The position numbers and the translations under genes are program-made. Under the pieces are notes generated by a model. That model saw only the letters and a program-made list of their open reading frames with translations. It was not told the origin of the DNA and searched no databases. Shown in pieces: positions 6,388-62,483 of a stretch of 64,000 nt of DNA; the first letter of the stretch is position 1; each line of letters starts with the position of its first letter. This DNA comes from Candidatus Kaiserbacteria bacterium (GTDB taxonomy: Bacteria > Patescibacteriota > Minisyncoccia > Phycocordibacterales > Phycocordibacteraceae): NCBI GenBank assembly GCA_963813065.1, contig CAWEXP010000006.1, positions 55,779-119,778 of the forward strand, in the 5' to 3' direction.

Positions 6388-7853
6388 GATTCAGAAATAG
6401 TGAACGCGACGAGCTCGTCGCCGGGCGCGGCGTCCTCCTTGGCCTCAATCTCGGTGCCGAATTCGCCTTCGGTGTGGATCTCTTTCACATCAGCGCGCGC
6501 GACTTGGAGATTCAAAATCTTGCCACGGGCGATCTCCTCGCCGCGGCGTTCGAGCTTGACCAGTGCGCCGAGTGCGAAGGCGCCGGAGAGATGGCGCACG
6601 CCGAGCACCTGCCGCTTCGCGCCCGAGGAAAATGTTTTCAACACTTTCCCGCGGCCGAGCTCGACCTCGCGCGCGATGTGCGGTGCGCGCTCGGCGAGGA
6701 GCTCGGTAACTTTCTCTGACAATTCATAAATAATCGTGAACGATGCGATGGGGACGCCATCGCGCTCGGCGAGTTCGCGCGCGGCCGAGTCGACGCTGGT
6801 GTTGAAGGTGATAATCGTGGCACTCGCCGCCGAGGCAGACTTCACATCGCCCTCGGCCACCGAGCCGACGCCTGCAGAAATGATGGAAATCACCACACCT
6901 TCGTGCGAGAGCTTCAAGAGCTCGTGTTGGATCGCGTCGATGGAGCCCTGCACGTCAGCTTTGATGACGAGCGGGAGCTCAACGACGCCTTCGGCGAGGG
7001 TGTCGCGGGCGACCGCGGCTTTCGCGGCGTTCATCGTGGCATGAGTGAGCACCTCGGCTTCTTTTTTGGTCTTCGCGAGCGTGAAAGGCGTGCCGGCATC
7101 GGGCAATTTCGAGAATCCAGAAATGCGCACGGGCTCCGCGGGCCCAGCCGATTCGATCCGCTTACCGAGATAGTTCTCGATGAAGCGCACGGGCGCGAAA
7201 GCGTCACCCGCGACAACGAACGTCCCCGTATTGAGGGTGCCGTCGCGGATGATGAGTGTGGCAGAGGCGCCGCGCTTGGCGTCTTGAGTCGATTCGAGGA
7301 CGAAGCCCTCGGCCGGAGCCGCGACATCGGCAGTCAGCTCGAGGAGGTCGGCCGCGAGGAGCACGAGGTCGAGGAGCTCGGGGATGCCCGCGCCACTTTT
7401 ATTAGAAACGAGCGCGTACGGGATGTCGCCGCCGAGGCCCTCGATATAGACGCCGTGTTCGAGCAGGGAATTCTTTGCGTGTTCGACGTCGGCATTATTT
7501 TTATCAATTTTTGTAATCGCGACGACGAAAGGAATTTTCGCTTCTTGGATTGCGGCGAGTGCATCGAGCGTTTGCGGCATCACGCCCTCGTCCGCCGCGA
7601 CGACGAGGATGGCGATGTCGGCCGACTGTGCGCCGCGTGCCCGCAGAGTTTTAAAAGCTTCGTGCCCGGGCGTATCGAGAAAGGTAACCTTGCGCCCCTG
7701 ATGTTCGGCAACATACGCCGAGACGTGTTGGGTAATCCCGCCCGCTTCGCCGGCCACCGTATTGGCGGTCCGGATATAATCGAGGAGGGAAGACTTGCCG
7801 TGGTCTATGTGACCCATCACCGCGATGATGGGCGCTCGCGCGGTTCTCGCCAT
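6384..7853 (-). CDS. infB: Translation initiation factor IF-2 (short form)
   Basis: G-domain motifs [27 protein letters not shown]; IF2 domain order; 489 aa. Confidence 0.85.
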
Positions 7854-7910
7854 ATAGAGCCTATTTCATCATAAAAATGGCTTTACTGCAATGTGCGGTA
7901 GAATGAAGAA

Positions 7911-9116
7911 ATGTTTTTCAAGAAGCGAACATATCTCGATTATGCCGCGGGGGCTAAAGGGAATCCGAGCTCAGCGCATGAGGAAGGCCGCAGGTCCCGA
8001 GAGCAACTCGAGGGAGCCCGCAAAGACATTGCAACTCTGACGGAGGTGAAACCAGACGACATCATTTTCACCAGCGGCGCGACGGAGGCGAATGCCATCG
8101 CCATCCTTGGGATAGGTAACTGTGAAGGTCAGACCTTCACAAAAAAACATGCGCTGTATTTGCCGAGTGCCCACGCGTCGATAGTCGAAAATATGAAATT
8201 GCTCGAGGAACGGGGAGTCGTGGTCGAGCCGTTGCCGATTAAAAATGGACAAGTTGATTGCCCAGCACTCGAAAAAATGATTCGACCGGAAACGGTGCTT
8301 GTTGCGATGGACGCGGTCTGTGGTGAGACGGGGACAATCTGGAATACGCGTGAGGTTGCAAATGTTCTGCGCGTGGCGGAGAAACGTTTTCTAGCTCCCT
8401 CGGGCCTCATCGGAATGAGTCAGCCAGTCGCGTCGAAAAGCTTTTTCCCCTCACGGGCTCTTCTGCACGTGGACGCGAGTCAGGCGCCGATGACCGAAAA
8501 GATTTCGCGCGCACATTTCTCGGCCGACACTTTGGTTTTTGATTCGGTGAAAGTCGGTGGGCCGCGTGGCGTCGGGTGCCTCATCGCGCACCGTACCATT
8601 CCCATCGCTCCCTTATATAGAGGCGGCGGCCAGGAGCGCGGCCTGCGACCAGGCACCGAGAATCCCGAGGCGGCGAGAGATTTTGCGCGGGCATTACGGA
8701 CTGCGAATGAAAACCATGATGCATTTCGTGCACACTCAACTTCGCTTAGGGCGCTTCTGCTCAAGGATTTAGCAAGGTTAAACCTTAAGAATAATGCATC
8801 AAGGTTTAACCTTGCTATAAATGCCGGCAAGGAAGTCGCTCCACACATTTTGAATATCTCTCTGCCCGGCAAGGATACCGATTATCTCGTCGCGCTCCTC
8901 GATGAGGCCGGGTTCGCCGTCTCGACGCGGAGCGCGTGCGAGACCGATTCAGAAGAGGGTTCGCGCGCGGTCTTTGCATTGACCAATGATCTCGAACGCG
9001 CGAAATCAACCCTCCGCATCTCGTGGGGACCTGCCACCTCCGACCGCGATCTTGCGCGTTTTGCCGCCGAACTCGTGCGTCAGGTCGCCTTCATTGACAG
9101 CACGGCTTCGCGGTAG
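7911..9116 (+). CDS. Class V aminotransferase / cysteine desulfurase family protein
   Basis: NifS/IscS-like layout (TSGATEANAIAI..., HVDASQA..., SACETD near the C-terminus). Confidence 0.7.
   Translation: MFFKKRTYLDYAAGAKGNPSSAHEEGRRSREQLEGARKDIATLTEVKPDDIIFTSGATEANAIAILGIGNCEGQTFTKKHALYLPSAHASIVENMKLLEERGVVVEPLPIKNGQVDCPALEKMIRPETVLVAMDAVCGETGTIWNTREVANVLRVAEKRFLAPSGLIGMSQPVASKSFFPSRALLHVDASQAPMTEKISRAHFSADTLVFDSVKVGGPRGVGCLIAHRTIPIAPLYRGGGQERGLRPGTENPEAARDFARALRTANENHDAFRAHSTSLRALLLKDLARLNLKNNASRFNLAINAGKEVAPHILNISLPGKDTDYLVALLDEAGFAVSTRSACETDSEEGSRAVFALTNDLERAKSTLRISWGPATSDRDLARFAAELVRQVAFIDSTASR
8770..8817. repeat. REP-like palindromic element inside the cysteine desulfurase CDS (17-bp inverted arms TAGCAAGGTTAAACCTT, 14-nt spacer)
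   Basis: Perfect 17-bp inverted repeat. Core AGGTT(T)AAACCT is shared with the REPs flanking the RAYT at 56974 and 57668. Reads through in frame (LARLNLKNNASRFNLAI). Confidence 0.6.
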
Positions 9117-9128
9117 CATCATAGGCCT

Positions 9129-9911
9129 ATGAATATCGAGGAACTCTCAAAGTCTCAACTGATATTGCTCACGATTCTTGTGAATTTCGTTACCTCGGTC
9201 GCGACCGGTATTTTGACGGTGTCCTTGCTCGACCACGTTCCGGCGGTGGTGACCCAGACGGTCAATCGTGTGGTCGACCACACGATCGAGACCGTCACGA
9301 CGGCTCCGGCGGCAGTGATAGCCGCGACACCCATCGCTACTCCTGCGCCCTCGAATCAGGATCTCGTGACGAGCGCACTCTCGGCGTCTGACGCACGTTT
9401 CGTTGCTATTTATCCTGCCGACATCGGTACCTCGACGCCTGCCATCGCTATCGGTACCTACCTGCCCAAGACGCGTGCGATTGTGACCGCCGCACAGAGC
9501 GCCCTGCCGAAGGAGGTGCTCGTCGGGTTCACCGATGGCTCGTATGTCGGCGCCTCGCTCTCGCACGAAGGTCGCGGCATCGCAATCTACGGCTTCGCGG
9601 ACAAGGCACCACTCTTCCAGACCTCAGCGCCGGAGCTCGTCTCTGCGAACAATTTGAAGCTTGGTGAGACGGCACTCGCCATCGCCGCCGACGGAAGCGC
9701 GACCACGGGCATCGTCGCGCGCGTCGGCACGGATGGCATCCACACGACCTTACCGGACATCGGTGCGGGTAGTGCGACCGTCGATCTCTCGGGCAACCTC
9801 ATCGGCATTGCCGCGGGCGGCACCGCCGGGCTCTTGATCCCGACCGACGCCATTCTCGCACTCCTCACCGCCACCTCCACGACGGCGACCTCCACGCCGG
9901 TAACGCACTAG
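9129..9911 (+). CDS. Membrane-anchored Ala/Thr-rich hypothetical protein
   Basis: N-terminal TM helix. C-terminal segment [17 protein letters not shown] faintly recalls a trypsin-like fold, but no catalytic Ser motif. Confidence 0.4.
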
Positions 9912-13909: not shown

Positions 13910-14061
13910 GGAGTGAGGTCACGAGCGATACGTCTGCGTATTGCTCGTGCGCCGAACGCAGGGTTCACACGCTTACGTATGAACCCGTAGTGGAAGGGTA
14001 GCAGACTCGAGGCGGTGGGGAAAGCTGCTCTGGCGCCTTACAGAGGGAGTATGATGGCGGT

Positions 14062-15072
14062 ATGCGTTCTCGCTTGCCGCTTTTGGCACTGCTCGCCACC
14101 CTCGGGTCTTTTGCGCTCCCACTCTTTGCGCATGCCACGGGCATCCCGTACTTCGGCCCTGTGGTGCCGAGCAATGCCGCCACCTGCGCCGCTGGCTGGC
14201 AGAGCCTCATCCAACTCATCAACAACGCCGTCGCGGTGGGCATCACCATCGTCCTGCTCTTCATCGCGCCCATCATGATCGCCTACGCCGGTTTTCTCTA
14301 TGTGGTGAATCCGGTTAATCCGAGCGGAAGGAGCCAGGCGAATAAGATGATGCTCAATGTGGTCACGGGCATCGTTATCTCGCTCGCGGCCTGGCTCATT
14401 GTGGATGCGGTTCTCACGACGCTTACCAATCAGGGCGGCCTAAATGTTTGGACCGCCGGCATGTTTGGCGACGGCACCACGCCCTGCCTCATTACCGATG
14501 CCAGTTTGAATACTTTTAATCAGAGCACGGGACAGACGGTCACGAGCGCGAGCGCGAACAGCGCGGCGCTCTCGGGTACCGGTGTCGGCTCCTGCGATCC
14601 CATCGAGGTCGGTGTCGGCGCGTCGAATGGCGGGTATGCCACAACTGCGGCAGAGGACCAGGCGCTTGCCTGCATCGCGCGCTACGAGAGTTCCTGTGGC
14701 ACCAAGAATCCGCCCTACAATCTCAACTCGAGCTGGAACACTCCAATAGCTAGCGCGGGTGGCAAAGCATCAACTGCGGCCGGTGCATTCCAGGTGCTTC
14801 TTGCTTCGAATCATACCTGCTACGACAATAACGCCTGTGATGCGGCGGTAAACTTGCCTCCCGGCACGCCGCTCAATTGCAACAAGGCGTTTACCTCGCT
14901 CGGCCTTCCGATTGATGGTCCCGCTCTGCAACAATGCGAACAAGCGGCGGGAAATGTCGCGTGCAGTTCGGCGGCCGCAGCCTGTCTGCTCACCCAGCAA
15001 ACTTTTCTCAAAGCCTATGCGGCCGATTCCTATGCGCAGAGTTGCGCGAGCCAGGCCGGCTACAGTGGCTAA
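14062..15072 (+). CDS. Fusion protein: signal peptide + pilin-like two-helix membrane domain + C-terminal lytic transglycosylase (SLT/VirB1-like) domain
   Basis: N-terminus MRSRLPLLALLATLGSFALPLFAHA. Hydrophobic core AVGITIVLLFIAPIMIAYAGFLYVV, pilin-paralog-like. C-terminal SLT-type signature ARYESSCGTKNPPYNLNSS...AGAFQVL (ES...NP...S..GA.G.xQ). Confidence 0.5.
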   Translation: MRSRLPLLALLATLGSFALPLFAHATGIPYFGPVVPSNAATCAAGWQSLIQLINNAVAVGITIVLLFIAPIMIAYAGFLYVVNPVNPSGRSQANKMMLNVVTGIVISLAAWLIVDAVLTTLTNQGGLNVWTAGMFGDGTTPCLITDASLNTFNQSTGQTVTSASANSAALSGTGVGSCDPIEVGVGASNGGYATTAAEDQALACIARYESSCGTKNPPYNLNSSWNTPIASAGGKASTAAGAFQVLLASNHTCYDNNACDAAVNLPPGTPLNCNKAFTSLGLPIDGPALQQCEQAAGNVACSSAAAACLLTQQTFLKAYAADSYAQSCASQAGYSG

Positions 15073-15089
15073 TGCGCTATGATGCAACT

Positions 15090-15629
15090 ATGAAAAAAGT
15101 ACTTATCATCCTCGCAATTCTCCTCATTATTCTCGGCGCAGTGTATTTCTTTTTCTTCACTGCGAAGATGCCAAACACACTCATCACCGGTACGCCCGGC
15201 TTACCAGTTGCCGGTTCGCAGTTGACGCCCGTTGGCTCGGAGGCGTCGACCACGACGAGCGCAGCGGAAGTCACGGTCGCTGCGCGTGGCACGGACCAGC
15301 CGATCGTCGTCAATGATTTTGTGCACAACGGCACCACGGCGCCTGACCCTTCGAATACGGGTAATTATTATCTCGCGGGTATGAACGGGAGCGATTTCGC
15401 TATCAGCTACAACGCGACGAGCCAATTTTTCACCATCGCGCTCAACAAAGAGCCCATCGGCACTGCGCGGCTTGAGGCAGAGCAATTCCTCCTGAAGGCA
15501 CTTGGGATACCTGAGGCACAACTCTGTAATATTAATTATTATCTCGGCACCGACGTATACACCAACTCGCTCTATGCCGGCAAGAACCTCGGCTTCAGCT
15601 TCTGCCCGGGCGCAACCGCATTACCCTAG
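15090..15629 (+). CDS. Membrane-anchored hypothetical protein
   Basis: MKKVLIILAILLIILGAVYFFFF N-terminal TM helix followed by a soluble domain. Confidence 0.45.
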   Translation: MKKVLIILAILLIILGAVYFFFFTAKMPNTLITGTPGLPVAGSQLTPVGSEASTTTSAAEVTVAARGTDQPIVVNDFVHNGTTAPDPSNTGNYYLAGMNGSDFAISYNATSQFFTIALNKEPIGTARLEAEQFLLKALGIPEAQLCNINYYLGTDVYTNSLYAGKNLGFSFCPGATALP

Positions 15630-15682
15630 TCACGAGTGCTCACCAAGCAAACAAAACAGAGCGCTCGGGCCGCTAGGCCAAT

Positions 15683-16654
15683 TCAACTCTGTTTTGTTCG
15701 CTTGCCTCGCACTCGTTTGCCAGCTTGCGGAGCCACGGCTTTTTGGCGACGGGCGTACTGCCACAGTTTAGCCGAAAGGGTAGGGAGAAGTGATTCTTTT
15801 GTGCGTTCATCACGCAAAAATTCGCCGACGATTTTGTACTCGAGACCGAGTTCGTTGAGGCGTAGTGCCTGCCCGGCTCGCTCGCGAGACGGGTCGCCAA
15901 CTTCTGCGCGCACGCGGGCGACCTCTTCGATAAGTCCGCGCTCCAGAGCGCTCGCGAGTCGCGCATCAATGTGTGCGCGCAATTCTTCGCGTGGTGGATC
16001 GATCATGATCCACTCGATTTGGTATTTGGGAAGGTCCTGTTTGTTCAGGTCAGACCTAAACAGTTGCTGTTTAGGTCTGACCTGAACAGGTCGCAGAGGG
16101 ACAGAGCCGCGAGCGGCAATAATCTCGAGCGCGCGGACGAGTCGGCGACGATTCTGCGGATCGAGCTCGGCCGCGCGGCGCGGGTCGGCTGTTTGTACTC
16201 TCGCAAACAGTTCTTCGGTCGAGAGCGTTCGAGCTCGGCGCGCAGTTCTGGATTCATGGCCACACTGCCGGGCAAACCTTTCAGCAATGCATCAAAATAA
16301 AAATGCGTCCCGCCGGCGAGGATCGGCAATTTCCCACGCGCGTTATCTCTGCGATCAGTCGCTCCGGCGTCGTGGACAAAATCTCCTGCCGAATAACTTT
16401 CGATTGCGTTGCGAATATCGATAAGGTGGTGAGATATGCCACGCATTTCCTCGCTCGTGTATTTTCTCCGTGCCAATGTCGAGGCCGCGGTAGACTTGGC
16501 GTGAGTCGACCGAAATCGACCTCGCCCCCCGCGCGAGCGCTTCTTGCACGGCCCGCGCGGATTTCCCCGAGGCGGTCGGCCCGGCGATGATAAGGATTTG
16601 CTCTGCCATCAGCCGCGATGGTATCCATAAATGTATGAAAGAAATGAAAAGCAA
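15683..16654 (-). CDS. miaA: tRNA dimethylallyltransferase MiaA, split into three ORFs by two apparent 1-nt frameshifts and carrying an in-frame palindromic insert
   Basis: P-loop GPTASGKS; motifs GISHHLIDI and ILAGGTHFY; C-terminal RALEIIAARG and WQYARRQ. Frame breaks at ~16448 (AAAA run) and ~16205. Confidence 0.65.
16037..16093. repeat. Palindromic element inserted in frame in miaA (CAGGTCAGACCTAAACAG-ttg-CTGTTTAGGTCTGACCTG plus imperfect flanks)
   Basis: 18-bp perfect inverted arms with 3-nt loop, extended by imperfect pairing. Translates without a stop in the miaA frame as RPVQVRPKQQLFRSDLNKQ. Confidence 0.7.
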
Positions 16655-17296
16655 TTATTGCGAGCATTGCGGCGAGTTCCACGATCATCCGGCCACGACT
16701 ATGTGAGCCAGGTGCGTGTTGGCGAGAGCGTGCCGGACTTCGAGTTCGAGGTCTACCAGAAGGAGAATATTAAAAAGATGTCGCTGTCCTCTCTGCGCGG
16801 CAAGTGGGCCGTGCTGGTCTTCTATCCGGCTGACTTCACGTTCGTCTGTCCGACCGAGCTCGAAGAATATGCGCATCTCTATTCGAAGTTCCAAGAATTG
16901 AATGCCGAAGTGATTTCGGTTTCCTCAGACACGGTCTTCACGCACAAGGCCTGGCACGACACGAGCGAGGCAATCAGCAGAATCAACTATCCGATGGCGG
17001 CTGACCCTTCGGGCAAATTGGCGTACGCCTTTGGCGTGCTCATTGAGGGTGGCGAGGCGGAGCTGACGCCGGACGAGGGTCTCGCTCTGCGCGGTACCTT
17101 CCTCATCGACCCGGCGGGCATCCTCCGCGCGATGGAGATCAACGACAATTCGATGGGCCGCAAGGCCGCCGAGACGCTCCGCAAGCTCCAGATGGCGCAG
17201 TACGTCGAGACGCACAAGGGTCAGGTCTGTCCGGCTTCGTGGGAGCCGGGTGACGACACGCTCGAGCCGGGGCTTGATCTGGTAGGGAAGATATAA
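16631..17296 (+). CDS. Peroxiredoxin (AhpC/Prx1 family, 2-Cys)
   Basis: FYPADFTFVCPTEL peroxidatic-Cys motif and resolving Cys near the C-terminus (VCPASW). True start probably downstream, e.g. GTG ~16703. Confidence 0.75.
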   Translation: MYERNEKQLLRALRRVPRSSGHDYVSQVRVGESVPDFEFEVYQKENIKKMSLSSLRGKWAVLVFYPADFTFVCPTELEEYAHLYSKFQELNAEVISVSSDTVFTHKAWHDTSEAISRINYPMAADPSGKLAYAFGVLIEGGEAELTPDEGLALRGTFLIDPAGILRAMEINDNSMGRKAAETLRKLQMAQYVETHKGQVCPASWEPGDDTLEPGLDLVGKI

Positions 17297-26907: not shown

Positions 26908-29418
26908 ATGGGCCAAATATCGAAAAAACGGGACAATAAAGACATTTCTCTCGAGCAGTACCAACATACAACTGTGAAGCGGGCCAATAATCCGCAAGTC
27001 GGACTCGTTAGCGGTACCTTGGATTCAAAGCCGAAAAAGAAAACATACCAACATGACCCGTATATTGATCCAACATTGTCTTGGGCGGGTAAGGCCGAAG
27101 GTGCTTCGTTTGGTGTTGATACTGTCTCGCTTCATATCCACGAACGGATAGATCCAAAAAGAATAATAAAACAAGTCCTAAAAAAGACTGAAGAAACAGT
27201 TAAATTGCAGCCATCACTTTTTGAACAACCGAGCGAAAATTTGAATACAGAAAAAGAGTTTGATTTTTATGGCCACACCAAAAACTGGTCAAATCGTCTT
27301 ATCGCCGGAGACAGCTTGCTCGTCATGAACTCTCTTCTGGAAAAAGAGAAAATGGCTGGGAAAGTACAGATGATTTATATAGATCCCCCGTATGGGATTA
27401 AATACAACTCAAACTTTCAACCTTTCACAAATAAGAGAGACGTGAAAGACAGGGACGACGACAGCATTCCTGCTGAACCAGAGATGATTAAAGCGTTTCG
27501 AGACACGTGGGAGCTTGGCATCCACAGCTACCTCACATATTTGCGAGATCGTTTACAGCTTTCGCACGACTTGCTGCATGAAAGCGGTAGTATTTTCTTG
27601 CAGATCTCCGACGAGAACGTACACCACATTAGAGAGTTGCTAGATGAGATTTTCGGGATGGAAAACTTTGTGGCGCAGATCAACTTCCGTAGCATGTCCC
27701 CGCTCGGTCAGTCTGGGATGGCGAGGGTCTACGATTACATACTCTGGTACGCCCGCGACAAGAAGAAAATGAAATACCGATCTATTTTTATAAACAGAGA
27801 AATCGAGGAGGAGCCCGAATTTTGCTATCTCGATACTGGCGATGGTTTGTATAAGAAGTTGAACCGCGAGGAAATAGCGGCTTTGCCTGCCGATCAAAGA
27901 AAAAAGATCTTCAAGAGGTCAACCCTCACGTCTTCTGGCTACACGCCCTCTTGCACCTATCCTTTCGAGTTGGGTGGGAAGGAATATCGTCCGCTTAGTG
28001 GGAAAAGTTGGCGAACTCATCCGGAGGGAATGAAGAAACTGATTGCCAAGCACCGCATCTTTGTACTCGGCCAGAATCCGTACTTCAAGCAGTACCACTC
28101 TGATTTTCCGTTCGTGCAACTCGAAAACGGATGGAAGGATACGGCCGCAGGATTTAGTGATCAGAAAATATATGTTGTGCAGACAAACAATAAAGTGATC
28201 GAGCGATGTGTTCTGATGGTCACGGATCCAGGAGATTTGGTCCTGGACCCGACTTGTGGCTCTGGCACGACAGCGTATGTAGCAGAACAGTGGGGTCGTC
28301 GTTGGATCATGTGCGATACTTCCCGTGTGGCAATCCAACTTGCAAAACAACGGTTGATGACCAGTCAATTTGATTATTACGAAATGGCACAACAAGAAGA
28401 AGGTGTCTCGTCTGGATTTAAATATAAAACCGTTCCACACACCACACTTGGAAGTGTTGCGAACAACGAACTAACCAAAGAAGAGACTCTCTATAATCAG
28501 CCATTTGTCATAAGAGATAAAGTTCGGGTGACTGGACCATTCACAGTAGAGGCCGTTCCGGGCATCCGCACCAAGCCAATTGAAGGAAATCTCCCGGATG
28601 TATCTGACAAAACAAATCCAACGAATCCGATTTCCGAGAAATTGAACGACTACCTCGATAGCATTCGTGCTTCAGGCATTCGCTCATACCACAATGAAGG
28701 AATTACATTCAACAGCGTAGAAGTTTCCGAAGGATTTAATGAAATTCATGCATTTGGAAATATTGATAGCAATGGGGAATATAAAAAGTGTGCAATAGTC
28801 TTTGGCCCTGATTATGCTCCCATGGAACAGACCCAAATTGAGCGAACAATGGACGAAATTAGAAATATGGCTGAGAAACCAAACATGGTCATCTTTTGTT
28901 CGTATGCTTTTGACCCCGAAGCATCAAAGGATGTTGATAACATAAAAATATCCGGTCTCCAGATTTTGAAAGCTCAAATGAATACGGACTTGCTCACTAA
29001 AGATTTAAAGAAAAAAGCAAACGCAGACAGACCATTTTGGCTCATTGGGGAACCAGATATTGAAATCAATAAAACCAAAGAAGGGAAATTCCAAGTGGAG
29101 GTGAAGGGATTCGATTACTATGATCCTCGTACCCAGGAGCTCAAGGGTGGCAGTACAGACAAAATTGCTGTCTGGATGATTGATACAGATTACGACAATA
29201 GATCCCTATTCCCCTCACAGATATTTTTCCCAATGCAAGATCAGAAAAGAGATTGGACTAAACTTGCAAAAGCGTTAAATGGGAGTGTAGACGAAGAGTT
29301 ATTGGAGCAATATACTGGCACAACATCAATACCTTTCGCATCAGGCGATAAACGAACCATAGCGGTAAAAATAGTCGATGACCGCGGTGTTGAGATGTTA
29401 GTGGTCAAGAAAATATAG
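26908..29418 (+). CDS. mod: Type III restriction-modification Mod subunit (N6-adenine/N4-cytosine beta-class DNA methyltransferase) with long C-terminal extension
   Basis: Motif IV IYIDPPY precedes motif I DPTCGSGTT (beta-class order). 836 aa, with ~350 aa after the MTase core. 4-nt gap to res. Confidence 0.75.
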   Translation: MGQISKKRDNKDISLEQYQHTTVKRANNPQVGLVSGTLDSKPKKKTYQHDPYIDPTLSWAGKAEGASFGVDTVSLHIHERIDPKRIIKQVLKKTEETVKLQPSLFEQPSENLNTEKEFDFYGHTKNWSNRLIAGDSLLVMNSLLEKEKMAGKVQMIYIDPPYGIKYNSNFQPFTNKRDVKDRDDDSIPAEPEMIKAFRDTWELGIHSYLTYLRDRLQLSHDLLHESGSIFLQISDENVHHIRELLDEIFGMENFVAQINFRSMSPLGQSGMARVYDYILWYARDKKKMKYRSIFINREIEEEPEFCYLDTGDGLYKKLNREEIAALPADQRKKIFKRSTLTSSGYTPSCTYPFELGGKEYRPLSGKSWRTHPEGMKKLIAKHRIFVLGQNPYFKQYHSDFPFVQLENGWKDTAAGFSDQKIYVVQTNNKVIERCVLMVTDPGDLVLDPTCGSGTTAYVAEQWGRRWIMCDTSRVAIQLAKQRLMTSQFDYYEMAQQEEGVSSGFKYKTVPHTTLGSVANNELTKEETLYNQPFVIRDKVRVTGPFTVEAVPGIRTKPIEGNLPDVSDKTNPTNPISEKLNDYLDSIRASGIRSYHNEGITFNSVEVSEGFNEIHAFGNIDSNGEYKKCAIVFGPDYAPMEQTQIERTMDEIRNMAEKPNMVIFCSYAFDPEASKDVDNIKISGLQILKAQMNTDLLTKDLKKKANADRPFWLIGEPDIEINKTKEGKFQVEVKGFDYYDPRTQELKGGSTDKIAVWMIDTDYDNRSLFPSQIFFPMQDQKRDWTKLAKALNGSVDEELLEQYTGTTSIPFASGDKRTIAVKIVDDRGVEMLVVKKI

Positions 29419-29422
29419 GTGT

Positions 29423-34234: not shown

Positions 34235-34494
34235 GTGGGTAGAGGCTTGCGCCTCTCATACGAGTTTCCCCGTATGGCCGGTAAAGACGACCCCACATGA
34301 TGGGTTTCCGCGTCTTTACCGGACTTCTCCAGCCATGCCCAGCCCGGAGGCTGAGTTTAGGCCATATCGCACCCTTGTATCGTACTCGGTCTGGAGCTTA
34401 TGTGAAGGCGGAACGTGCTTTCTACAAAAAACCAGAAACAGAAAAAACCATAGATTCTATGGCTTCTTCTGAGGTTATATTAACTGGCCTTCGG

Positions 34495-37031: not shown

Positions 37032-37331
37032 TCAATACTCCGGCTCCTGATGCTTCTTGGGGTCAACTTCCCACCAGAATTTCTTCGAGAAGTGTTTGGC
37101 GCGACTGCAGACGCTCTTCAAATAATATAAGTCGTTGGTGGGGATGCCTTCGAGGATGAGGCCAAGACGCGACATGGTGAGCGGCACGAGCCCGTCCTTC
37201 TTGCGCGAATAATTAAGATGTTTCTGGAAGAATTGCAGGAGCTCGCCGCGCTCCGTCTTCCGCTGACGCCCGCCCGGCGCTGACGCCATCTTCTTCTCGA
37301 TGTCGGGCAAAATCTCCTTGATGGACTTCAT
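37032..37331 (-). CDS. Hypothetical protein
   Basis: 99-aa basic ORF overlapping the murA start. Confidence 0.35.
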   Translation of the reverse strand: MKSIKEILPDIEKKMASAPGGRQRKTERGELLQFFQKHLNYSRKKDGLVPLTMSRLGLILEGIPTNDLYYLKSVCSRAKHFSKKFWWEVDPKKHQEPEY

Positions 37332-38632
37332 GACGTTTCAATTTCAGCACCGAGAGACTTGAGGCGCGTGACGATATCCTCATAGCCGCGGGAGATCGAG
37401 TAGACGTTGCGGAGGGTTGAGCGACCGGCGCTGCCGAGCATGGCGACGAGGATGATGGTCGCGGGGCGCAGTGCGGGCGGGCAGACGACCTCGGCCGCCT
37501 TGAGCCGCACGGGGCCGGGGATCGAGATGCGATGCGGATCGTGGAGCACGGTCTGCGCGCCGAGTCGATCGAGCTCGGTGTAATAGATCGCGCGCTTCTC
37601 GTAGACCCAGTCGTGGATAAGGGTTGTGCCCTTGGCCACGAGCGCAATGGCGGCGAAGAAGGGGAGATTGTCGATGTTGAGACCCGGATAGGGGCGGGCA
37701 TGAATTTTTTCGGGGAAGGCAGTCAGGCTCGACGGCTTCAGGTGCAGGTCGATGATCTTGGTAATGCCATTCTCTGAGACGCGTGGATTCTTGAGCGAGT
37801 ATTTCAATCCCATTTTCTCGAGAATAAAAAGTTCGGTCTCGAGGAACTCGATGGGCGCACTGCGAATGACGAGCGCTGACTTCGTCACGATGGCCGCAGA
37901 GATGAAGAACATCGCGTCGGTCGGATCTTCGGCGACGGTGTATGAAATATCTTTTTTAATCTCTCGAATGCCGCGCACCGTGAGTGTCGTCGAGCCGGTG
38001 CCCTCAATCTCGACGCCGAGCGCTTGCAAGAATCCGCAGACTTCCTGCACCTGATAATTCGCCGAGGCGTACTTGATGATGCTCGTGCCGGGAATCTTCG
38101 CGGCGGCGAAGAGGGCATTAATGGTCGCGGTGTCGCTCGATTCGTAGAGAGTCACTTCGGCCGGGTGCAGAGTCGTATGCGTAATACGGTAGCGGTCACG
38201 GAGTGCGCTGATGGCAATGCCGAACTTCTCGAGCGCGTAGAGATGCGGCCGCGCCGAACGGAGGCCCAAGGTACAACCGCCCGATTGCGGCAACTCGAAT
38301 TTTTTGAAACGGTGCACCAAGGGGCCGATGAACATCAAAATACTGCGCGTCTTGGTCGCGGCGACCTTATCAATTTTATCGAGGTTTAACCTCGATGAGG
38401 GGGCAACGATGAGGCTCGAACCGTTCCATTCCACCGAGACACCAATCGACCGCAGGACTTCGACGAGTCGGTGCACCTCCTCGATCTTCGGCACGCGCTC
38501 GAGGGTCGTGACACCATCGTTCAGTAGCGAAGCGGCGAGGAGTGCGACCGCGCCGTTCTTCGAGCGCGAGGTGATGACTTCGCCTCTCAGTTTCTTGCCG
38601 CCCTCAATCACGAAATTCATGCCGTCGGCCAT
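37328..38632 (-). CDS. murA: UDP-N-acetylglucosamine 1-carboxyvinyltransferase
   Basis: EPSP-synthase fold pattern: KLRGEVITSRSKNGAVALLAASLL..., active-site region RSARPHLYALEKFG (catalytic Cys replaced). Confidence 0.8.
   Translation of the reverse strand: MADGMNFVIEGGKKLRGEVITSRSKNGAVALLAASLLNDGVTTLERVPKIEEVHRLVEVLRSIGVSVEWNGSSLIVAPSSRLNLDKIDKVAATKTRSILMFIGPLVHRFKKFELPQSGGCTLGLRSARPHLYALEKFGIAISALRDRYRITHTTLHPAEVTLYESSDTATINALFAAAKIPGTSIIKYASANYQVQEVCGFLQALGVEIEGTGSTTLTVRGIREIKKDISYTVAEDPTDAMFFISAAIVTKSALVIRSAPIEFLETELFILEKMGLKYSLKNPRVSENGITKIIDLHLKPSSLTAFPEKIHARPYPGLNIDNLPFFAAIALVAKGTTLIHDWVYEKRAIYYTELDRLGAQTVLHDPHRISIPGPVRLKAAEVVCPPALRPATIILVAMLGSAGRSTLRNVYSISRGYEDIVTRLKSLGAEIETS
38378..38396. 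repeat. REP palindrome ATCGAGGTTTAACCTCGAT within the murA coding sequence
   Basis: 19-bp perfect palindrome identical to the core of the RAYT-flanking REPs; encodes SSRLNLDKI in frame. Confidence 0.6.
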
Positions 38633-40801: not shown

Positions 40802-41227
40802 CTAGAAAGGAATCTTGATACCAATCACGAGTGCGCTCGTGTGGCCCAGCTTGTTCTCGCCGATGAGTGGCTCGAATTGCACACCACTCACGACCCAGCG
40901 ATACGTCAGCGCATCGTAGAAGGCGTGGAACCGGCCGCTCTCAAAAGAAAGTAGAAGGTCGCGTTCGATCGGCATGCCACTCAAGTACGCATACTTTTTC
41001 TCGAGCGTACCGATGCGCCACGGCTTCTTCGCATCATAGGCCGGTGTTGACGGTTCTTGCCACGGACGATCGCGGAATTCCTTCCACGAGGGCGGCGGAA
41101 TCACGAGGTTTATCTTGTTTAAGTCAGACTTGAACAGAGTAGCGCTATGCGCACACTCGGTCGACATCGCCAGTGCGGCAATCAAGATTACAAAAAACAA
41201 AAGAGCGAGACTCAACCAGCGCTTCAT
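40802..41227 (-). CDS. Secreted hypothetical protein
   Basis: Signal-like MKRWLSLALLFFVILIAALA. Confidence 0.4.
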   Translation of the reverse strand: MKRWLSLALLFFVILIAALAMSTECAHSATLFKSDLNKINLVIPPPSWKEFRDRPWQEPSTPAYDAKKPWRIGTLEKKYAYLSGMPIERDLLLSFESGRFHAFYDALTYRWVVSGVQFEPLIGENKLGHTSALVIGIKIPF

Positions 41228-41319
41228 CGGCGCCTCCTGGAACGTTTCTGCGCGAAAGTGTAGCACGGTATAAAAAGGGCGCCCGGTGAGGGGCGCCCAA
41301 GATTTTCGCACCAACTGTT

Positions 41320-42162
41320 TTAGCCGAAGATGTGCCCAAGAGCATACGAGAACTTGAGCATCCACACATCATCGAGATGATGTTTGAAGTACAGAGCCTG
41401 TCCGGTAACGTTTATCGTGAACCAATCCGTCGGATGATAGGTGAGTCCGCCCATGCCGATGGTCGAGTTCGAGCTGTTGCCCGTGAGGCTCACCGCCTGT
41501 GCCACTAAGAGATTGGCATCGACGCTGTCGGACCTGCCGAAAAGGCGATTGAGTGCCTTGAAGTCTGCCGACACGCCGAGACTGCTGGTGACGTAGGTAT
41601 CGTATTCGTTGATGCCTTCGAAGGCCTCAACTTTACCGGTGATACCGAAGGTCACCTTCCCATCCTTGAACGGACGTGTCGCGGCGAAGGACTGATAGAG
41701 TCCATCGTCTTTCAACGTCGCAAGGAAGTCTCGATCGTGGAAAGAAAGAAACCAATACGAGGCGGTTGCTTCGTAGTCGATCGGCCCGACGAAGGTCGAT
41801 GTTGAGCCGTCGCCGCCGATCGTCACGTCTGCTTCCTTGGCAGTTTCGAGATCGTTGCGGTGGTTACGGAACGAGTTCCACCAATCGCCCCAGACGTTAT
41901 CGAACAAGGGAGCGAACCAGGACGGATGGTCCCAATTCAGTGTGAACCCAGCGTTCGTTGTCGGTCCACGGGACGCCTGCATGCCGAAGTACGCGGCGAT
42001 GTATTTCGTCCGCTCACCGCCGTAGACGCTTACATCGGGCCCAGAGTCGACGGTAGTTACCATTGGATCTGTGCCGAGGCCCGCAATCGCAAACGACGGG
42101 GTCGTCGCCAATGCCAGCGCGAAGCCAGCAAGCATAATGGAAGTGAAAAGACCGTTGCGCAT
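41320..42162 (-). CDS. Secreted hypothetical protein (beta-rich; ends ...GHIFG)
   Basis: Signal peptide MRNGLFTSIMLAGFALALATTPSFA; alternating hydrophobic pattern. Confidence 0.4.
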   Translation of the reverse strand: MRNGLFTSIMLAGFALALATTPSFAIAGLGTDPMVTTVDSGPDVSVYGGERTKYIAAYFGMQASRGPTTNAGFTLNWDHPSWFAPLFDNVWGDWWNSFRNHRNDLETAKEADVTIGGDGSTSTFVGPIDYEATASYWFLSFHDRDFLATLKDDGLYQSFAATRPFKDGKVTFGITGKVEAFEGINEYDTYVTSSLGVSADFKALNRLFGRSDSVDANLLVAQAVSLTGNSSNSTIGMGGLTYHPTDWFTINVTGQALYFKHHLDDVWMLKFSYALGHIFG

Positions 42163-42289: not shown

Positions 42290-43030
42290 ATGCACCACGC
42301 TTTTTTCATCGAGGCGGAAGCGGAAGCGGGAACGGCACTCGCGCTCGAGAGTATCGAGCGCGAGTTGGGGATGAAGGCGGCGGGGAATCCAGACGTCGTC
42401 GTTTTGAAATATGGATTGCTCTCGGTTGAGGATACGCGACGAATTATTGAAATAGCTTCAACGAAAGCATTTGGGAAGGCTAAAACTTCCTCTGAAGGAC
42501 GTTCGCCCGACGCTTCGGGAGAAGCGTCTAGGGCGATTGTTATCGCGGCGAGTCGCGCGTATCACGAGGCGCAGAACGCACTCCTGAAAATATTCGAGGA
42601 GCCCGCGCCCGGCACACACCTATTTCTCATTCTCCCCTCAGCGGGGATGCTCTTGCCGACGCTGAAATCTCGAATGCAAATTGTGGACACGCCGTGTCCT
42701 AAATCAGATTTAGGACACGCCGTGTCCAACTTGCCGGAAGCGGCGCAAAAGTTCCTCGCGGCGACGAGCGAGAAGCGCACGGCAATTGCGAAGAAGCTCG
42801 CAACGGGCGATGACGAAGACGATCGACGTGCCAATCGTGACGAGGCGCTCGCGATTGTGAATGGCATTGAGCTCGCGGCATACCGCGCATCGAAGAAACA
42901 GCCGGACCCAGCACTCTTCGCGCTCCTCTCCGACCTCGCAATCCTGCGCACGTATCTCCACGAACGCTCGGCGCCGGTCCGTATGATTCTCGAGCACGTC
43001 GCGCTCGTGATTCCAAAAAGCTTGAAATGA
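42290..43030 (+). CDS. holB: DNA polymerase III delta' subunit
   Basis: AAA+ clamp-loader pattern ALLKIFEEPAPGTHLFLI...LPTLKSRMQ. Confidence 0.65.
   Translation: MHHAFFIEAEAEAGTALALESIERELGMKAAGNPDVVVLKYGLLSVEDTRRIIEIASTKAFGKAKTSSEGRSPDASGEASRAIVIAASRAYHEAQNALLKIFEEPAPGTHLFLILPSAGMLLPTLKSRMQIVDTPCPKSDLGHAVSNLPEAAQKFLAATSEKRTAIAKKLATGDDEDDRRANRDEALAIVNGIELAAYRASKKQPDPALFALLSDLAILRTYLHERSAPVRMILEHVALVIPKSLK
42685..42727. repeat. 43-bp perfect palindrome inside holB (GGACACGCCGTGTCC-TAAATCAGATTTA-GGACACGCCGTGTCC)
   Basis: Two copies of a 15-bp self-palindrome flank a 13-bp palindromic spacer; read in frame as DTPCPKSDLGHAVSN. Shares the CCTAAA(T)CAG core with the miaA element. Confidence 0.65.
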
Positions 43031-56973: not shown

Positions 56974-56994
56974 TATCGAGGTTTAACCTCGATA
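56974..56994. repeat. REP palindrome TATCGAGGTTTAACCTCGATA (RAYT 3' flank)
   Basis: 21-bp perfect palindrome overlapping the RAYT stop. Confidence 0.7.
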
Positions 56995-57657
56995 TTCTTG
57001 ATAGTATTCATGCGCGTCAGTAATCATTTCCTCAAGAGAGGGGAGTTCCTCGTAGAGTTCAAAAACCGTCATGCCAAGGAGATGTTTTTCTAGTCGTTGC
57101 AACTTCAGAAAGTCTGGAAGACTCGAGTATCGGTACCGGATGAGTTCGTTTTTAATCTGCGATACGTTTCCGTCGCCATTTTTCCATGCAGAATCAAAGA
57201 GTTTTGCAGGATTCAGATGGACATAGGCAACCAACCGCTTAAGATACAGATCATCGTCGACAATCTTCGATTTAAACGTTCCCGCAAACAATGCGCCCGT
57301 TCGTTCATATTTAGTATTAAAGTACATCGTGTAGCCCGTACAAAGTTTTTGCATGAAGCGCGCAATGCCTCCCTTGTCTATCTCTTTAAGTACCAGATGA
57401 AAGTGGTTTGGCATCAAACAATATGCACCGATTTCTACAATGGCGTTTCCACGGTCAAAACTCGAATCAAGAATTACATCCGCCAATCTTTTGTTTTTAA
57501 GATTAGAGGTCTGTACTGGTTTTTCGCCACCGCTCGTAAAGAGGGCGAGCAGAAAACGTTCATAATCTGCAGAATCTTGATACACCAGCCGTTTATCTAC
57601 CCCACGGTTGTAGCAGTGATACCACTCATCAATTCCAAATGCCGGTCGCGTAGGCAT
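56983..57657 (-). CDS. REP-associated tyrosine transposase (IS200/IS605-like HUH Y1 transposase)
   Basis: HUH motif HFHLVL, conserved Tyr region (AYVHLNPAK), ~220 aa; flanked on both sides by the same REP palindrome. Confidence 0.7.
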   Translation of the reverse strand: MPTRPAFGIDEWYHCYNRGVDKRLVYQDSADYERFLLALFTSGGEKPVQTSNLKNKRLADVILDSSFDRGNAIVEIGAYCLMPNHFHLVLKEIDKGGIARFMQKLCTGYTMYFNTKYERTGALFAGTFKSKIVDDDLYLKRLVAYVHLNPAKLFDSAWKNGDGNVSQIKNELIRYRYSSLPDFLKLQRLEKHLLGMTVFELYEELPSLEEMITDAHEYYQEYRG

Positions 57658-57667: not shown

Positions 57668-57688
57668 TATCGAGGTTAAACCTCGATA
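57668..57688. repeat. REP palindrome TATCGAGGTTAAACCTCGATA (RAYT 5' flank)
   Basis: 21-bp palindrome, variant of the 56974 copy. Confidence 0.7.
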
Positions 57689-59465: not shown

Positions 59466-61200
59466 ATGAGAGGGCAATTCCGTTTCCGCATCCGCATCGT
59501 ACTCTTTGCGGTTGTATTCATCGCACTGCTGATTGTCGTGCGACTCTACTTCGTCCAAGTGGTCGATGGCGCGAACTACTCTTTGAAGGCCGATCACCAA
59601 TTCGCCTCGGGCGGGAGCGGACTCTTCGATCGCGGTTCGATTTATTTCACCACTAAGAACGGTACACTGGTCTCCGCCGCGACTCTGGAGACCGGTTTCC
59701 TCGTCGCGCTCAATCCACAGACCATACAAGACCCTGAGGCGGCCTATGCGGCAGTTTCGGCGTCTGCGTCGACGTCGATCTCGCATGATGCCTTTATCGC
59801 GGCCGCCGCGAAGAAGAACCAAGTGTATATCGAGGTCGCGCATCACCTCTCGGACGCCGCAGGCAAGGCGCTCGTCGCGCGGAACATCCCGGGCCTCGAT
59901 GTCTTGCGGGAGCGCTGGCGCGTCTATCCGGGTGGTGACTTGGCCGCGAACGCCGTCGGCATCGTCTCGTACGGCTCGGGCGATGACCTCACCGGTCAGA
60001 CCGGTCTCGAGTCGGAGTACGACACCGCGCTCGCACGTTCGGGTGATGCGCTCTACAAGAATTTCTTTGCTCAGCTCTTCTCGAATGTGGGCGACGTACT
60101 CATTGATGCACGGAGTGCGCGCGAGGGCGATGTGGTGACTACCGTCGAGCCCGAGGTTGAGACACGACTCGCGCAGGATCTCGCGCAAGTGAATCAAAAA
60201 TATTCGAGCAAGGAGTCCGGCGGTATCATCATGGATCCAGCCACGGGCGCCCTCATCGCGCTCGCGACCTATCCGACCTATGATCCAAATGATTTGACGA
60301 GCGTACCGCCCGCACTCCTCGGCGATCCGCTCGTCGAGCATGTGTACGAGTTTGGTTCGATTATGAAATCGCTCACGATGGCCTCCGGGCTCGATGCAGG
60401 CGTCATCACGCCCGCGACGACCTATAACGATACGGGCTGTATCCACGTCGACTCGGCGACGATTTGTAACTACGACTTGAAGGCGCGCGGCGTGATCCCC
60501 ATGCAACAAATTCTCTCGCAGTCCTTAAATGTCGGTGCATCGTGGATCGCGACGCAACTCGGGCAGAGCGCATTCCGTTCGTACTTCACGGCACTCTTCG
60601 GGCAGAAGACGGGCATCGATCTGCCTTCAGAAACCAGCGCCCTGCTCGGCAACCTTTCCAAGCCGCAACAAGTCGCCTTCGACACGGCCTCCTTCGGCCA
60701 GGGGATTGCGGTCTCGCCCGTGCAGATGATCCGTGCGCTCGGCGCCTTGGCGAATAATGGCTCGATGGTCCGGCCACATGTAGTGAGCGCCATCCAGCTC
60801 GACAATGGCGTGACGCGCACGCTCGACTGGAGCGGCGAGACACCCGTCTTCTCGCCCACCGCCGTGCGCGAGGACACCACCATGCTCACCAGCGTGGCTG
60901 ACGTATTCTCTCGCCAATGGCAAAGACCGCATTCCGACCACCAGCTTCGCGGCCAAGACCGGCACCGCCCAATTGACCAATGGCCAGGGTGGCTATTACA
61001 AGGATCGCTACTTCCACTCCTTCTTTGGGTACTTCCCCTCGTACGCGCCGAGGTTTATTATCCTGCTCTACACCAACGATCCGCAGGGTGTCGAATATGC
61101 TTCTGAAACGCTTACCTCGACCTTCATGGACTTGACCCACTTCCTCATCGACTATTATCAGATACCGCCTGACCGCTCGGCCACAACGACAACCCCATGA
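59466..61200 (+). CDS. ftsI: Penicillin-binding protein FtsI/PBP3-like transpeptidase, with one apparent frameshift near the C-terminus
   Basis: N-terminal TM, SxxK (GSIMKS), SxN, KTGTAQ found in the +1 frame (ORF 60973-61200). Frame break ~60895-60915. Confidence 0.75.
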
Positions 61201-62483
61201 AAAAACTCTTGAAAGTCCCCTTCACGCTTTTCCTCTCGTTTCTCGCGCGGGGCGTCGTGCGCCGGTATCACCCGCAGATCGTGATGGTGACGGGGAGCGT
61301 GGGGAAGACCTCGACCAAAGATGCGGTCGCGGCGGTACTCTCCGCTCGTTTTTTCCTTCGCCAGAGCGAGAAGAGTTTCAATAGTGAGTTCGGCGTACCA
61401 CTCACCATCTTCGGCGCGAAGAATCCATGGTTGAACCCCATCGGTTGGCTCGGTGTTTTCAAGACCGCGCTCGCACTTCTCATTCTGCCGAATCATTATC
61501 CCAACCTGCTCGTGCTCGAAGTCGGCGCCGACCGCCCGGGAGACCTCAAGCGCATTATGCGCATTGCCACTCCGAAGGCTGTGGTCGTGACGAAATTGCC
61601 CGAGATACCGGTACATGTCGAAGCGTATGCCTCACCCGAGGCTCTGCGCGAAGAAGAATTCTTGCCGGCACAATATTTGCCCGCTGGCGCGCCCTTGGTG
61701 TTCCTCGGCGACGACGAGCACGCGCTCAAGATGTCGGCCTGCGTGCCGGCGCAGGCGCTCACCTACGGTACCGGGAGCGACGCGAATCTCCGCATCAGCG
61801 CTATCGATTTTTATATTGAAGACGGCGTCGTGGCGGGTATGCAAGCGCACGTGGAATTAAATGGAGAGAAAGGTGTCGTCGTGGTGAAGGGTTCGGTAGG
61901 GAAGACACAAGTGCTCCCAGCCGCCGCGGCCATCACCCTCGCGAGCGCCTTCGGCATGACGCTCCAGGAATCCATCGTTGCGCTCGAGAGTTATGAGCCG
62001 CCGCCGGGGAGAGGGCGGCTTTTTGTGGGCAAAAATGAGTCGGTCATCATCGACGAGTCCTACAACTCATCGCCTGCGGCGCTCGAAGAGGCGCTCGAAA
62101 CACTCAAGAAGTTTCCTGCAAAAAGAAAAATCGCGGTGATGGGCGACATGCTTGAACTCGGTCGGTATTCAGTCATGGAGCACGAACGCATTGGTGCCCT
62201 CGCGGCCTCCTGTGCCGATATCGTCGTCAGTGTCGGTATCCGTGCGCGTCGCATACTCGATTCAGCGACCGCCGCCGGATTACCGGCGGCGCACTCCTAT
62301 GCCTATGACAACGCCCAGGACGCCGCCACCGCGCTCTCGTCACTCATCGAGCCCGGCGACGTGGTGATGATAAAAGGTTCGCAATCTATCCGCACCGAGC
62401 GTATCGTCGCCGCGCTCCTGGCTAACTCCGCCGACCTCTCCCGTCTCGTCCGGCAGGATACGGAGTGGACCCGTCGGGTGTAG
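61197..62483 (+). CDS. Mur ligase family protein (MurF/MurE-like)
   Basis: P-loop VTGSVGKTSTKD, Mur ligase central and C-terminal domains; dcw position after ftsI. N-terminal domain short. Confidence 0.55.
   Translation: MKKLLKVPFTLFLSFLARGVVRRYHPQIVMVTGSVGKTSTKDAVAAVLSARFFLRQSEKSFNSEFGVPLTIFGAKNPWLNPIGWLGVFKTALALLILPNHYPNLLVLEVGADRPGDLKRIMRIATPKAVVVTKLPEIPVHVEAYASPEALREEEFLPAQYLPAGAPLVFLGDDEHALKMSACVPAQALTYGTGSDANLRISAIDFYIEDGVVAGMQAHVELNGEKGVVVVKGSVGKTQVLPAAAAITLASAFGMTLQESIVALESYEPPPGRGRLFVGKNESVIIDESYNSSPAALEEALETLKKFPAKRKIAVMGDMLELGRYSVMEHERIGALAASCADIVVSVGIRARRILDSATAAGLPAAHSYAYDNAQDAATALSSLIEPGDVVMIKGSQSIRTERIVAALLANSADLSRLVRQDTEWTRRV

Follow-up and report, generated by a model that had tools for sequence, protein, structure and literature searches.

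The 64,000-nt stretch analysed here (the window; positions 55,779 to 119,778 of the forward strand of contig CAWEXP010000006.1, assembly GCA_963813065.1, Candidatus Kaiserbacteria bacterium) carries on its minus strand miaA, the gene for tRNA dimethylallyltransferase, and within miaA lies a 47-nt perfect palindrome. We read this element as REPIN-like, that is, as a head-to-head doublet of a short palindromic repeat of the REP (repetitive extragenic palindromic) type, which has come to lie in a tolerant surface loop of MiaA and is translated; we put the probability of this reading at about 0.7. The features at the locus are as follows.

15673..16609, minus strand: miaA, recognised by three-frame translation and by homologs with PF01715 that are ~70% identical
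16042..16088, no strand given: the 47-nt perfect palindrome, interpreted as a REPIN-like doublet of head-to-head units
16042-16063: unit 1 of the palindrome, TGTTCAGGTCAGACCTAAACAG
16064-16066: loop, TTG
16067-16088: unit 2 of the palindrome, CTGTTTAGGTCTGACCTGAACA
16037..16093: the 57-bp extent given in the original prediction, in which the outer 4-5 bases pair imperfectly (CCTG..CAGG plus a 4-nt bulge)

The perfect arms of the palindrome are 22 nt each and enclose a 3-nt loop. Each arm amounts to a quasi-palindromic unit of ~21-23 nt, TGTTYAGGTCWGACCTRAACA, with the core AGGTYNRACCT, and the variant found in miaA is GGTCAGACC, also written TGTTCAGGTCAGACCTAAACA. The original prediction had placed the palindrome correctly and had given its perfect arms as 18 nt, which is too short, and its 57-bp extent holds only if the imperfect outer pairing of CCTG with CAGG around the 4-nt bulge is counted. 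Its statement that the palindrome is in frame and stop-free in miaA was borne out by the local translation: the minus-strand frame across the palindrome reads PLRPVQVRPKQQLFRSDLNKQDL without a stop, as does the wider local frame ...RALEIIAARGSVPLRPVQVRPKQQLFRSDLNKQDLPKYQIEWIMIDP.... One reading frame per strand is open, and the four others contain stops. The encoded peptide, VQVRPKQQLFRSDLNK, lies between the ...RALEIIAARGSVPLR helix and the YQIEWIMIDP strand of MiaA.

Palindromes of this kind are far more frequent in the window than its composition predicts. Perfect palindromes with a stem of at least 9 and a loop of at most 6 were observed 17 times, compared to 2.4 times in Markov-3 simulations of the window (simulated maximum 5). 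At the miaA palindrome the RNA fold reached -39.6 kcal/mol (z = -10.5), a value equalled by 0 of 200 shuffles, and the GC content of the element was 45%, compared to 58% for miaA. No Rfam family matched it at the gathering threshold. When the flanks (16020-16110) were inspected for direct repeats, no convincing target-site duplication was seen around 16042-16088. The earlier label of a MITE-like (miniature inverted-repeat transposable element) insertion can be kept in the broad sense of a non-autonomous member of a dispersed family of small palindromic repeats. It does not hold in the strict sense, in which such elements have a non-coding core of 70-300 bp between terminal inverted repeats and are bordered by a target-site duplication, since this element measures 47 nt and has no internal core.

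Reading frame of miaA and assembly errors

In the window, miaA is not one open frame, and the MiaA-like peptide switches frame several times. For comparison, we used L005, a short-read contig from ENA that is 87% identical to the window and carries an intact miaA (P0001). Seven 1-nt indels separate the window miaA from that of L005, located at 16529, 16518, 16460, 16365, 16344, 16226 and about 15739-15744. The Logan contig L094 (run ERR11630400) equals the window over 13970-15826 except for one extra G in the window near 15739. This G is the C-terminal frameshift of miaA, and without it L094 reads the conserved motif QYARRQKAWLRKL in frame. Since L094 is otherwise identical but lacks the extra G, at least part of the miaA breakage is an error of the assembly consensus. 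At least one of the seven indels is thus an assembly error, and miaA is probably intact in the organism. A reading of the locus as a miaA pseudogene was set aside as the main one after L094 had removed one frameshift.

An error-prone assembly could also have produced the palindrome itself, as a chimeric fold-back or another artefact of assembly or amplification. In its favour are the clustered 1-2-nt indels nearby, at least one of them an error, and the frameshifts in the clpB-like and penicillin-binding protein (PBP) genes. This explanation is effectively refuted: arms identical to those of the window occur at the same codon position in L005, an independent short-read contig of another lineage; homologous palindromes occur in dozens of unrelated metagenome contigs; and a second Logan contig of ERR11630400 (L093), 100% identical to the window over 7792-9354, reproduces the other units of the window exactly. 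As a warning for annotation, stable intragenic hairpins coincide here with a patch of uncorrected assembly indels.

Several further irregularities were noted in and around miaA. Compared to L005, the window has 2 extra nt at 16692-16693, which disrupt the N-terminal end of the peroxiredoxin gene, and a further indel at 16624. The clpB-like gene shows an apparent frameshift at ~12190 (...LTDS, then continuing in another frame), and the PBP gene shows one at ~60910, with the KTGTAQ motif in a different frame from the open reading frame (ORF) 59466..61106. The window MiaA has a second insert, GDPSRERAGQAL (~15862-15893, roughly 30 nt), which is missing from L005 and most orthologs and resembles the insert DPSRQGEAEADL of P0005; it was not counted as a palindromic element because it has no significant structure (z -0.75). 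At 15632-15716, in the gap between miaA and the convergent gene upstream and reaching into the 3' end of miaA, there is a long imperfect inverted repeat whose 30-nt arms are 83% complementary and 25 nt apart (DNA fold z -6.0 at -26.4 kcal/mol).

The MiaA loop in orthologs

The MiaA homologs at ~70% identity are labelled Paceibacterota, Kaiserbacteria or Minisyncoccota by their sources. Between the anchors G-x-V-P-x-R and Y-x-V-E-W, most orthologs have a basal spacer of 5-6 residues, compared to 22 residues in the window and L005. The alignment therefore upholds an insertion relative to most orthologs, with a net gain of ~16 aa (48 nt) instead of the 19 aa originally proposed. Orthologs that share the inserted residues while lacking the nucleotide symmetry, which would have spoken against an inserted palindrome, were not found: L005 is the sole ortholog with these residues and keeps the palindrome, and the others carry different palindromes or none. 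In a survey of 80 metagenome loci plus L005 and the window, both anchors could be located (in any frame) in 74, and in all 74 the distance between them was stop-free and a multiple of 3 (range 57-108 nt), a regularity that speaks for translation of the inserts and against their removal.

In the AlphaFold model of P0001, the insert has a predicted local distance difference test (pLDDT) score of ~50 and is flanked by a helix and a core strand with scores of 82-92. As modelled, the extra ~16 residues would sit in a permissive, floppy surface loop of MiaA. The linker also varies in length among solved MiaA structures, being long in Pseudomonas aeruginosa (3CRM) and short in Bacillus halodurans (2QGN). 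This general variability, together with the in-frame state of the insert at all loci, could suit a lineage-specific functional loop under selection at the protein level, with the nucleotide symmetry as a by-product. We consider such a loop very improbable because a perfect 22-bp symmetry cannot follow from selection on a peptide, the peptides at the site are unrelated between species, and the insert is low in model confidence.

The inserts at the miaA site fall into the following types.

Doublets of the AGGTCAGACCT-like unit: window, L005, L007, L013, L022, L027, L034, L037/38, L053
Single units: L010, L016, L028, L046, L078
A family with outer stems CCTTATTT/AAATAAGG and a CTATAG centre: L006, L008, L011, L021, L031, L039, L059, L067
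Short GC-rich palindromes that take one arm from the conserved P-A-R codons (CCGGCGCGG...CCGCGCCGG): L009, L024, L032, L035, L064

About half of the orthologs have a short linker and no notable palindrome. Most of the long forms are exact Watson-Crick palindromes despite many differences between species. Two pairs of close relatives are distinguished solely by an inverted loop between the arms: on the miaA strand it reads CAA in the window and TTG in L005, and likewise GCA in L009 and TGC in L032. These loop flips and the kept symmetry point to hairpin processes that would act at the DNA level. A neighbour-joining tree of MiaA without the insert showed the insert types scattered, with a resolution too poor to separate recurrent insertion from inheritance.

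The stability of the hairpin and the presence of hairpins of differing sequence at the same position in many orthologs might instead reflect a selected regulatory structure in miaA, such as a site of translational pausing, a processing site or an attenuator inside the gene, to which the extra residues are incidental. The ~270 nt around the palindrome (16240-15975) are moreover 92-98% identical between the window and L005, compared to 77-88% in the rest of miaA; this tract could be a recombination tract or reflect constraint at the nucleotide level. We regard a regulatory role as improbable. It does not sit well with the short-linkered half of the orthologs, and the same units are found in other, unrelated genes as well as at intergenic positions; only Watson-Crick pairs are formed, and by our own reading G-U pairs do not account for the mismatches of imperfect relatives; no Rfam family matches; and, the next gene being convergent, the hairpin has no downstream target for regulation.

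Two side observations concern the palindromes of the miaA loci. On L049 (714-761 and 6730-6771) and L077 (4727-4759 and 10527-10559), the same 33-48-nt perfect palindromes occur twice per contig, with one copy in miaA. A third family, ACTTGG...CCAAGT, is found at another place in miaA, close to its C-terminal part, in L049, L053, L061 and L072.

Dispersed copies of the unit

Beyond miaA, the strict core AGGTYNRACCT occurs at 8 sites in the 64-kb window (0.08 expected) and at 23 sites in 745 kb of miaA-flanking loci of relatives (2.7 expected). The relaxed core A[AG]GT[CT]N[AG]AC[CT]T was found at 72 sites in all collected loci plus the window, compared to 6-13 in simulations. Relatives of the 23-nt arm lie at 41115-41137 (4 mismatches) and 8120-8142 (5-6 mismatches), where simulations gave 0.0 and 0.1. 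The copies in other genes of the window are listed below, followed by a doublet of a second palindrome family.

41115..41137: single unit TTGTTTAAGTCAGACTTGAACAG in ORF 40802..41365(-), peptide LFKSDLNK, 4/23 mismatches to the miaA arm
8121..8141: single 21-nt unit TGTGAAGGTCAGACCTTCACA in the cysteine desulfurase ORF 7911..9116(+), where it adds 7 aa (21 nt) relative to P0242
8770..8817: doublet, also in the cysteine desulfurase ORF, made of AAGGTTWAACCTT units whose 17-nt perfect arms are 14 nt apart, peptide LARLNLKNNASRFNLAI
38378..38396: 19-nt unit ATCGAGGTTTAACCTCGAT inside murA (37328..38632, -), peptide SSRLNLD
42684..42728: two copies of GGACACGCCGTGTCC around TAAATCAGATTTA, a doublet of the second family, placed in frame within the DNA polymerase III delta'-like ORF 42290..43030(+), peptide VDTPCPKSDLGHAVSN

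The cysteine desulfurase gene offers natural empty sites. Both its single unit and its doublet (DNA fold z -7.7) are missing from P0242, the nearest relative (76% identical), and from 18 other orthologs, and one of the gaps in P0242 is exactly 7 aa, or 21 nt. Doublets with a start-to-start spacing of 26-27 nt were seen in miaA and the cysteine desulfurase gene of the window and in L005, L013, L027, L053, L056 and L077. Most core copies are intragenic and invariably lie in open frames, with the recurring peptides RSDL, KSDF, RLNL and VRP. Units can also recur within one relative: L034 has GGGAAGTCAGACTTCCC twice in miaA and again in the cysteine desulfurase gene, and L022 has five AAGTCWGACTT units across three genes.

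The second family, GGACAY(n1-5)RTGTCC, was found at 18 sites, compared to ~0.4 in simulations, and its doublet in the delta'-like gene has a DNA fold z of -8.9. As side observations, sites of this family occur in the window, L011, L014, L032, L035, L036, L051, L067 and L077, and include an in-frame doublet in miaA of L077 and, at seven orthologous loci, a single unit that immediately follows the stop codon of miaA.

A scan of a genome-contig collection that does not include the source genome for the 18-mer CAGGTCAGACCTAAACAG gave only 4 matches, all in metagenome-assembled genomes of Cyanobacteria or Bacteroidota and at about chance level. Scans of viral sequences gave no match to the miaA 18-mer and one match to the 19-mer that flanks the transposase gene described below; the latter lies at 6599-6617 of L092, an IMG/VR contig classed as viral, at the end of a glycine-rich ORF.

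Some minor observations were made on short inserts and palindromes elsewhere. More perfect palindromes (stems 9-12) lie in open frames at 2267-2290, 9265-9286, 42337-42365 and 62270-62291, including in the Mur ligase and delta'-like genes. In L040, L079 and L061, the cysteine desulfurase orthologs have short inserts at fixed sites, such as GPSPRRSWLRPRGG near the N-terminus and 0-30 aa before LLHVDASQA. The resemblance between GRSPDASGEA in the delta'-like protein of the window and GGSPDASQNE in the MiaA of P0008 hints at further shared elements.

A transposase gene flanked by the same core

The window also encodes a transposase related to the REP-associated tyrosine transposases (RAYTs), and units of the same core lie at both of its ends.

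56983..57657, minus strand: RAYT-like Y1/HUH transposase gene, 224 aa, assigned by Pfam Y1_Tnp, fold match and homologs
56974..56994: unit TATCGAGGTTTAACCTCGATA, lying across the stop codon of this RAYT-like gene
57668..57688: unit TATCGAGGTTAAACCTCGATA, 11 nt upstream of its start codon

The protein scored 30.4 bits against Pfam Y1_Tnp (PF01797; cut-off 23), and residues N84, H85, H87 (HUH motif) and Y145 (the tyrosine in Y-x-H-L-N-P) are invariant in 37 homologs. Its model has a pLDDT of 91.4, and the best Foldseek match in the PDB was 4ER8_A (E 1.8e-5; TM score 0.71, normalised to the target), the Escherichia coli REP-associated tyrosine transposase bound to a REP hairpin, which ranked above the transposases of IS608 and ISDra2. 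Searching the PDB by sequence gave no match, so that the fold search alone succeeded. As judged by its NCBIfam score, given below, the transposase is only distantly related to the curated RAYTs. Exact-match look-ups found no record for the transposase (window reference, P0121) or for the 107-aa C-terminal ORF of miaA. The homolog clusters have 1 member each, on 1 or a few contigs, and the gene is apparently single copy. Its neighbourhood is common to the window and L086, where the gene stands between a class II tRNA synthetase and a group made up of MraZ, RsmH, PBP and Mur ligase.

The gene is flanked on both sides by TATCGAGGTTWAACCTCGATA. In each of the four lineages compared (window, L086/87, L088/89 and L090/91), one palindrome with the core AGGTTAAACCT closely precedes the ATG and another spans the stop codon. 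The TAA stop codon forms the centre of the 3' palindrome (...CGA GGT TAA ACC TCG...), and in 19 of the 37 homologs the C-terminus, as read from the alignment, is YRG/YQG, VKP (EVKP/KVKP) or KV/EV, as the stop-codon overlap predicts. The exact flanking unit recurs in murA, where the 19-nt unit at 38378..38396 is identical to it at all 19 positions.

Proposed origin of the element

Two inverted units forming one hairpin, a dispersed family of such units and a flanked single-copy Y1 transposase make up the anatomy described for the REPIN/REP/RAYT system (PMC5581495), and this combination therefore leads us to the REPIN-like reading. The units would spread, now or formerly, while DNA is replicated, with the RAYT-like enzyme working on hairpins of single-stranded DNA, a mode that has been proposed for REPINs. 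In a genome almost without intergenic space, the surviving copies would be only those that are in phase, stop-free and placed in tolerant protein loops, and a 21-nt unit would add 7 codons. DNA processes templated by a hairpin or cruciform, and not selection on an RNA fold, would be the source of the loop flips and of a Watson-Crick symmetry that stays exact across diverged species, and the inserted peptide itself would have no dedicated function.

A number of results weigh against this reading. Against the NCBIfam model REP_Tyr_transpos (NF047646), the transposase scored 31.6 bits, below the cut-off of 80. The miaA unit differs from the flanking variant GGTTWAACC in its inner bases (GTCAGAC vs GTTWAAC), so that the two have no more in common than the 21-nt architecture and the 8 outer bases of the core (AGGT..ACCT); given this difference, the transposase is at most a putative mover of the miaA unit. 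No RAYT homolog was found by tblastn in the 745 kb flanking miaA of relatives, and the 20-kb flanks of three other RAYT homologs held only one further unit. The counts for the source genome rest on the 64-kb window, and the copy number is known for that stretch alone. The copies share a core and have divergent stems, unlike the products of recent copy-and-paste events, and no GTAG/CGTC tag, which most described REPs have, adjoins the units in the window, L086, L088 or L090. The murA unit site is only +2 aa relative to solved MurA structures, which a simple insertion fails to explain. Finally, the same MiaA loop is filled by different palindrome families in different species, which requires targeting or genesis in situ.

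The last two points also suit an origin in place. Quasipalindrome template-switch mutagenesis and small hairpin-loop inversions, known from E. coli and chloroplasts, perfect imperfect inverted repeats and invert loops between perfect arms. Strand-switching of the replicative polymerase at short inverted repeats, with the flanking sequence copied in the opposite orientation, could have created, lengthened and perfected palindromes in tolerant loops without any mobile element. Such a process would fit the unrelated palindromes at the same MiaA loop in different species, the short forms in L009, L024, L032, L035 and L064 that use conserved P-A-R codons as one arm, the exact symmetry of most long forms despite species divergence, the loop flips, and a murA unit almost without length gain. 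It is a mutational process and not an element, and it covers the symmetry and loop flips but not the common core: the same 11-nt core and 23-nt unit at unrelated loci across species, the extended stems common to different genes of one genome, the core flanking the RAYT-like gene in four lineages, and the 45% GC of the element inside a 58% GC gene are left unexplained. As a full account, we therefore consider it unlikely. Within the REPIN-like reading, template switching in situ probably also contributes to the exact symmetry.

A more far-reaching version of the REPIN-like reading is a REP-RAYT system adapted to coding sequence, in which 7-codon units without stops in most frames would home to existing hairpins in tolerant loops and hairpin-templated repair would keep the arms complementary. 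We hold this version to be doubtful. If it were true, orthologous loops would be repeatedly re-occupied or overwritten by different palindrome families, with the MiaA loop after G-x-V-P-x-R and the cysteine desulfurase site before LLHVDASQA as examples, and one class of element would make much of the lineage-specific 'decoration' of proteins in the candidate phyla radiation (CPR), steadily supplying new surface loops.

Comparison with known palindromic repeats

The REPIN/REP/RAYT system (Nunvar 2010; Bertels & Rainey 2011, PMC3116915; Bertels 2017, PMC5581495) resembles the present case in having short palindromic units of which two, inverted, form a long hairpin, in the over-representation of the units, here within 64 kb, and in a single-copy, vertically inherited Y1/HUH transposase flanked by units, here apparently single copy, in a neighbourhood kept in L086 and with a fold match to 4ER8. 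REPs are palindromic units of about 20-40 nt; those found here measure 21-23 nt and also occur singly (8121-8141 and 41115-41137). The hairpin has perfect 22-nt arms and a 3-nt spacer, and ORF 56983..57657 combines the HUH fold and catalytic tyrosine with units on both sides. The extragenic location of REPs is not shared, as the element lies inside miaA and most units of the window lie within ORFs. Compared to the described systems, most copies here are thus intragenic and translated; the units are near-perfect palindromes of ~21 nt with a 1-nt centre and no GTAG/CGTC tag; the doublet spacer is only 3 nt; the stop codon of the transposase lies within the 3' flanking unit; the miaA unit is another variant than the transposase flank; and the host belongs to the CPR/Patescibacteria, whereas most described cases are from Proteobacteria.

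Closer in location are the intragenic GTAG/CGTC REPs, which occur in other phyla as in-frame singletons and dimers in genes for known proteins, with inserts of ~20-30 aa (Di Nocera et al. 2013, PMC3733652). Their dimers can lie 1-2 bp apart, as in Opitutus terrae, and REPs can be nested in existing target palindromes (PMC3733652). Closely spaced, in-frame, translated dimers are common to both cases. Those REPs carry a terminal GTAG/CGTC tetranucleotide and are intragenic in a minority of cases, whereas the units here are untagged and intragenic in the majority within 64 kb, and PMC3733652 has no report of one ortholog loop that is recurrently filled by different palindromes, as in MiaA.

The Rickettsia palindromic elements (RPEs; Ogata 2000; reviewed in PMC10969869) are likewise in-frame palindromic repeats in housekeeping genes of a reduced genome, translated and presumed to lie at the protein surface, and two RPE families have been equated with in-frame REPs (PMC3733652; PMC10969869). 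The RPE-1 type, at ~100-150 bp with a conserved family peptide, is set apart by length and host from the 47-nt miaA element of a Paceibacteria-like host. RPEs have no linked transposase (the CGTC families are without one, PMC3733652), whereas here a RAYT-like gene is flanked by the same core.

In-frame REP dimers and RPEs have thus been described before; the CPR host is new in the literature searched, and an open-access search for REP/RAYT systems or in-frame palindromes in CPR, Patescibacteria or Parcubacteria found no relevant report. REPs and REPINs are known mainly as intergenic passengers of Proteobacteria. Together with a RAYT-like gene, they would here inhabit a CPR genome nearly free of intergenic space, with the surviving copies written into proteins, and they would offer a concrete source for many short lineage-specific inserts in CPR proteins. 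The natural filled and empty sites and the loop-flip variants provide material for studying REPIN mobility and palindrome maintenance.

Other features of the window

A DNA methylase of 836 aa (PF01555) and a 909-aa ResIII helicase/endonuclease are encoded by a low-GC island at 26908-32152 (41-49% vs ~57%). The island resembles a type III restriction-modification system and was probably acquired horizontally. The window further contains eight tRNAs, one of which adjoins a match to the Rfam LOOT RNA on the minus strand (34241-34363; 84 bits, gathering score 46.4).

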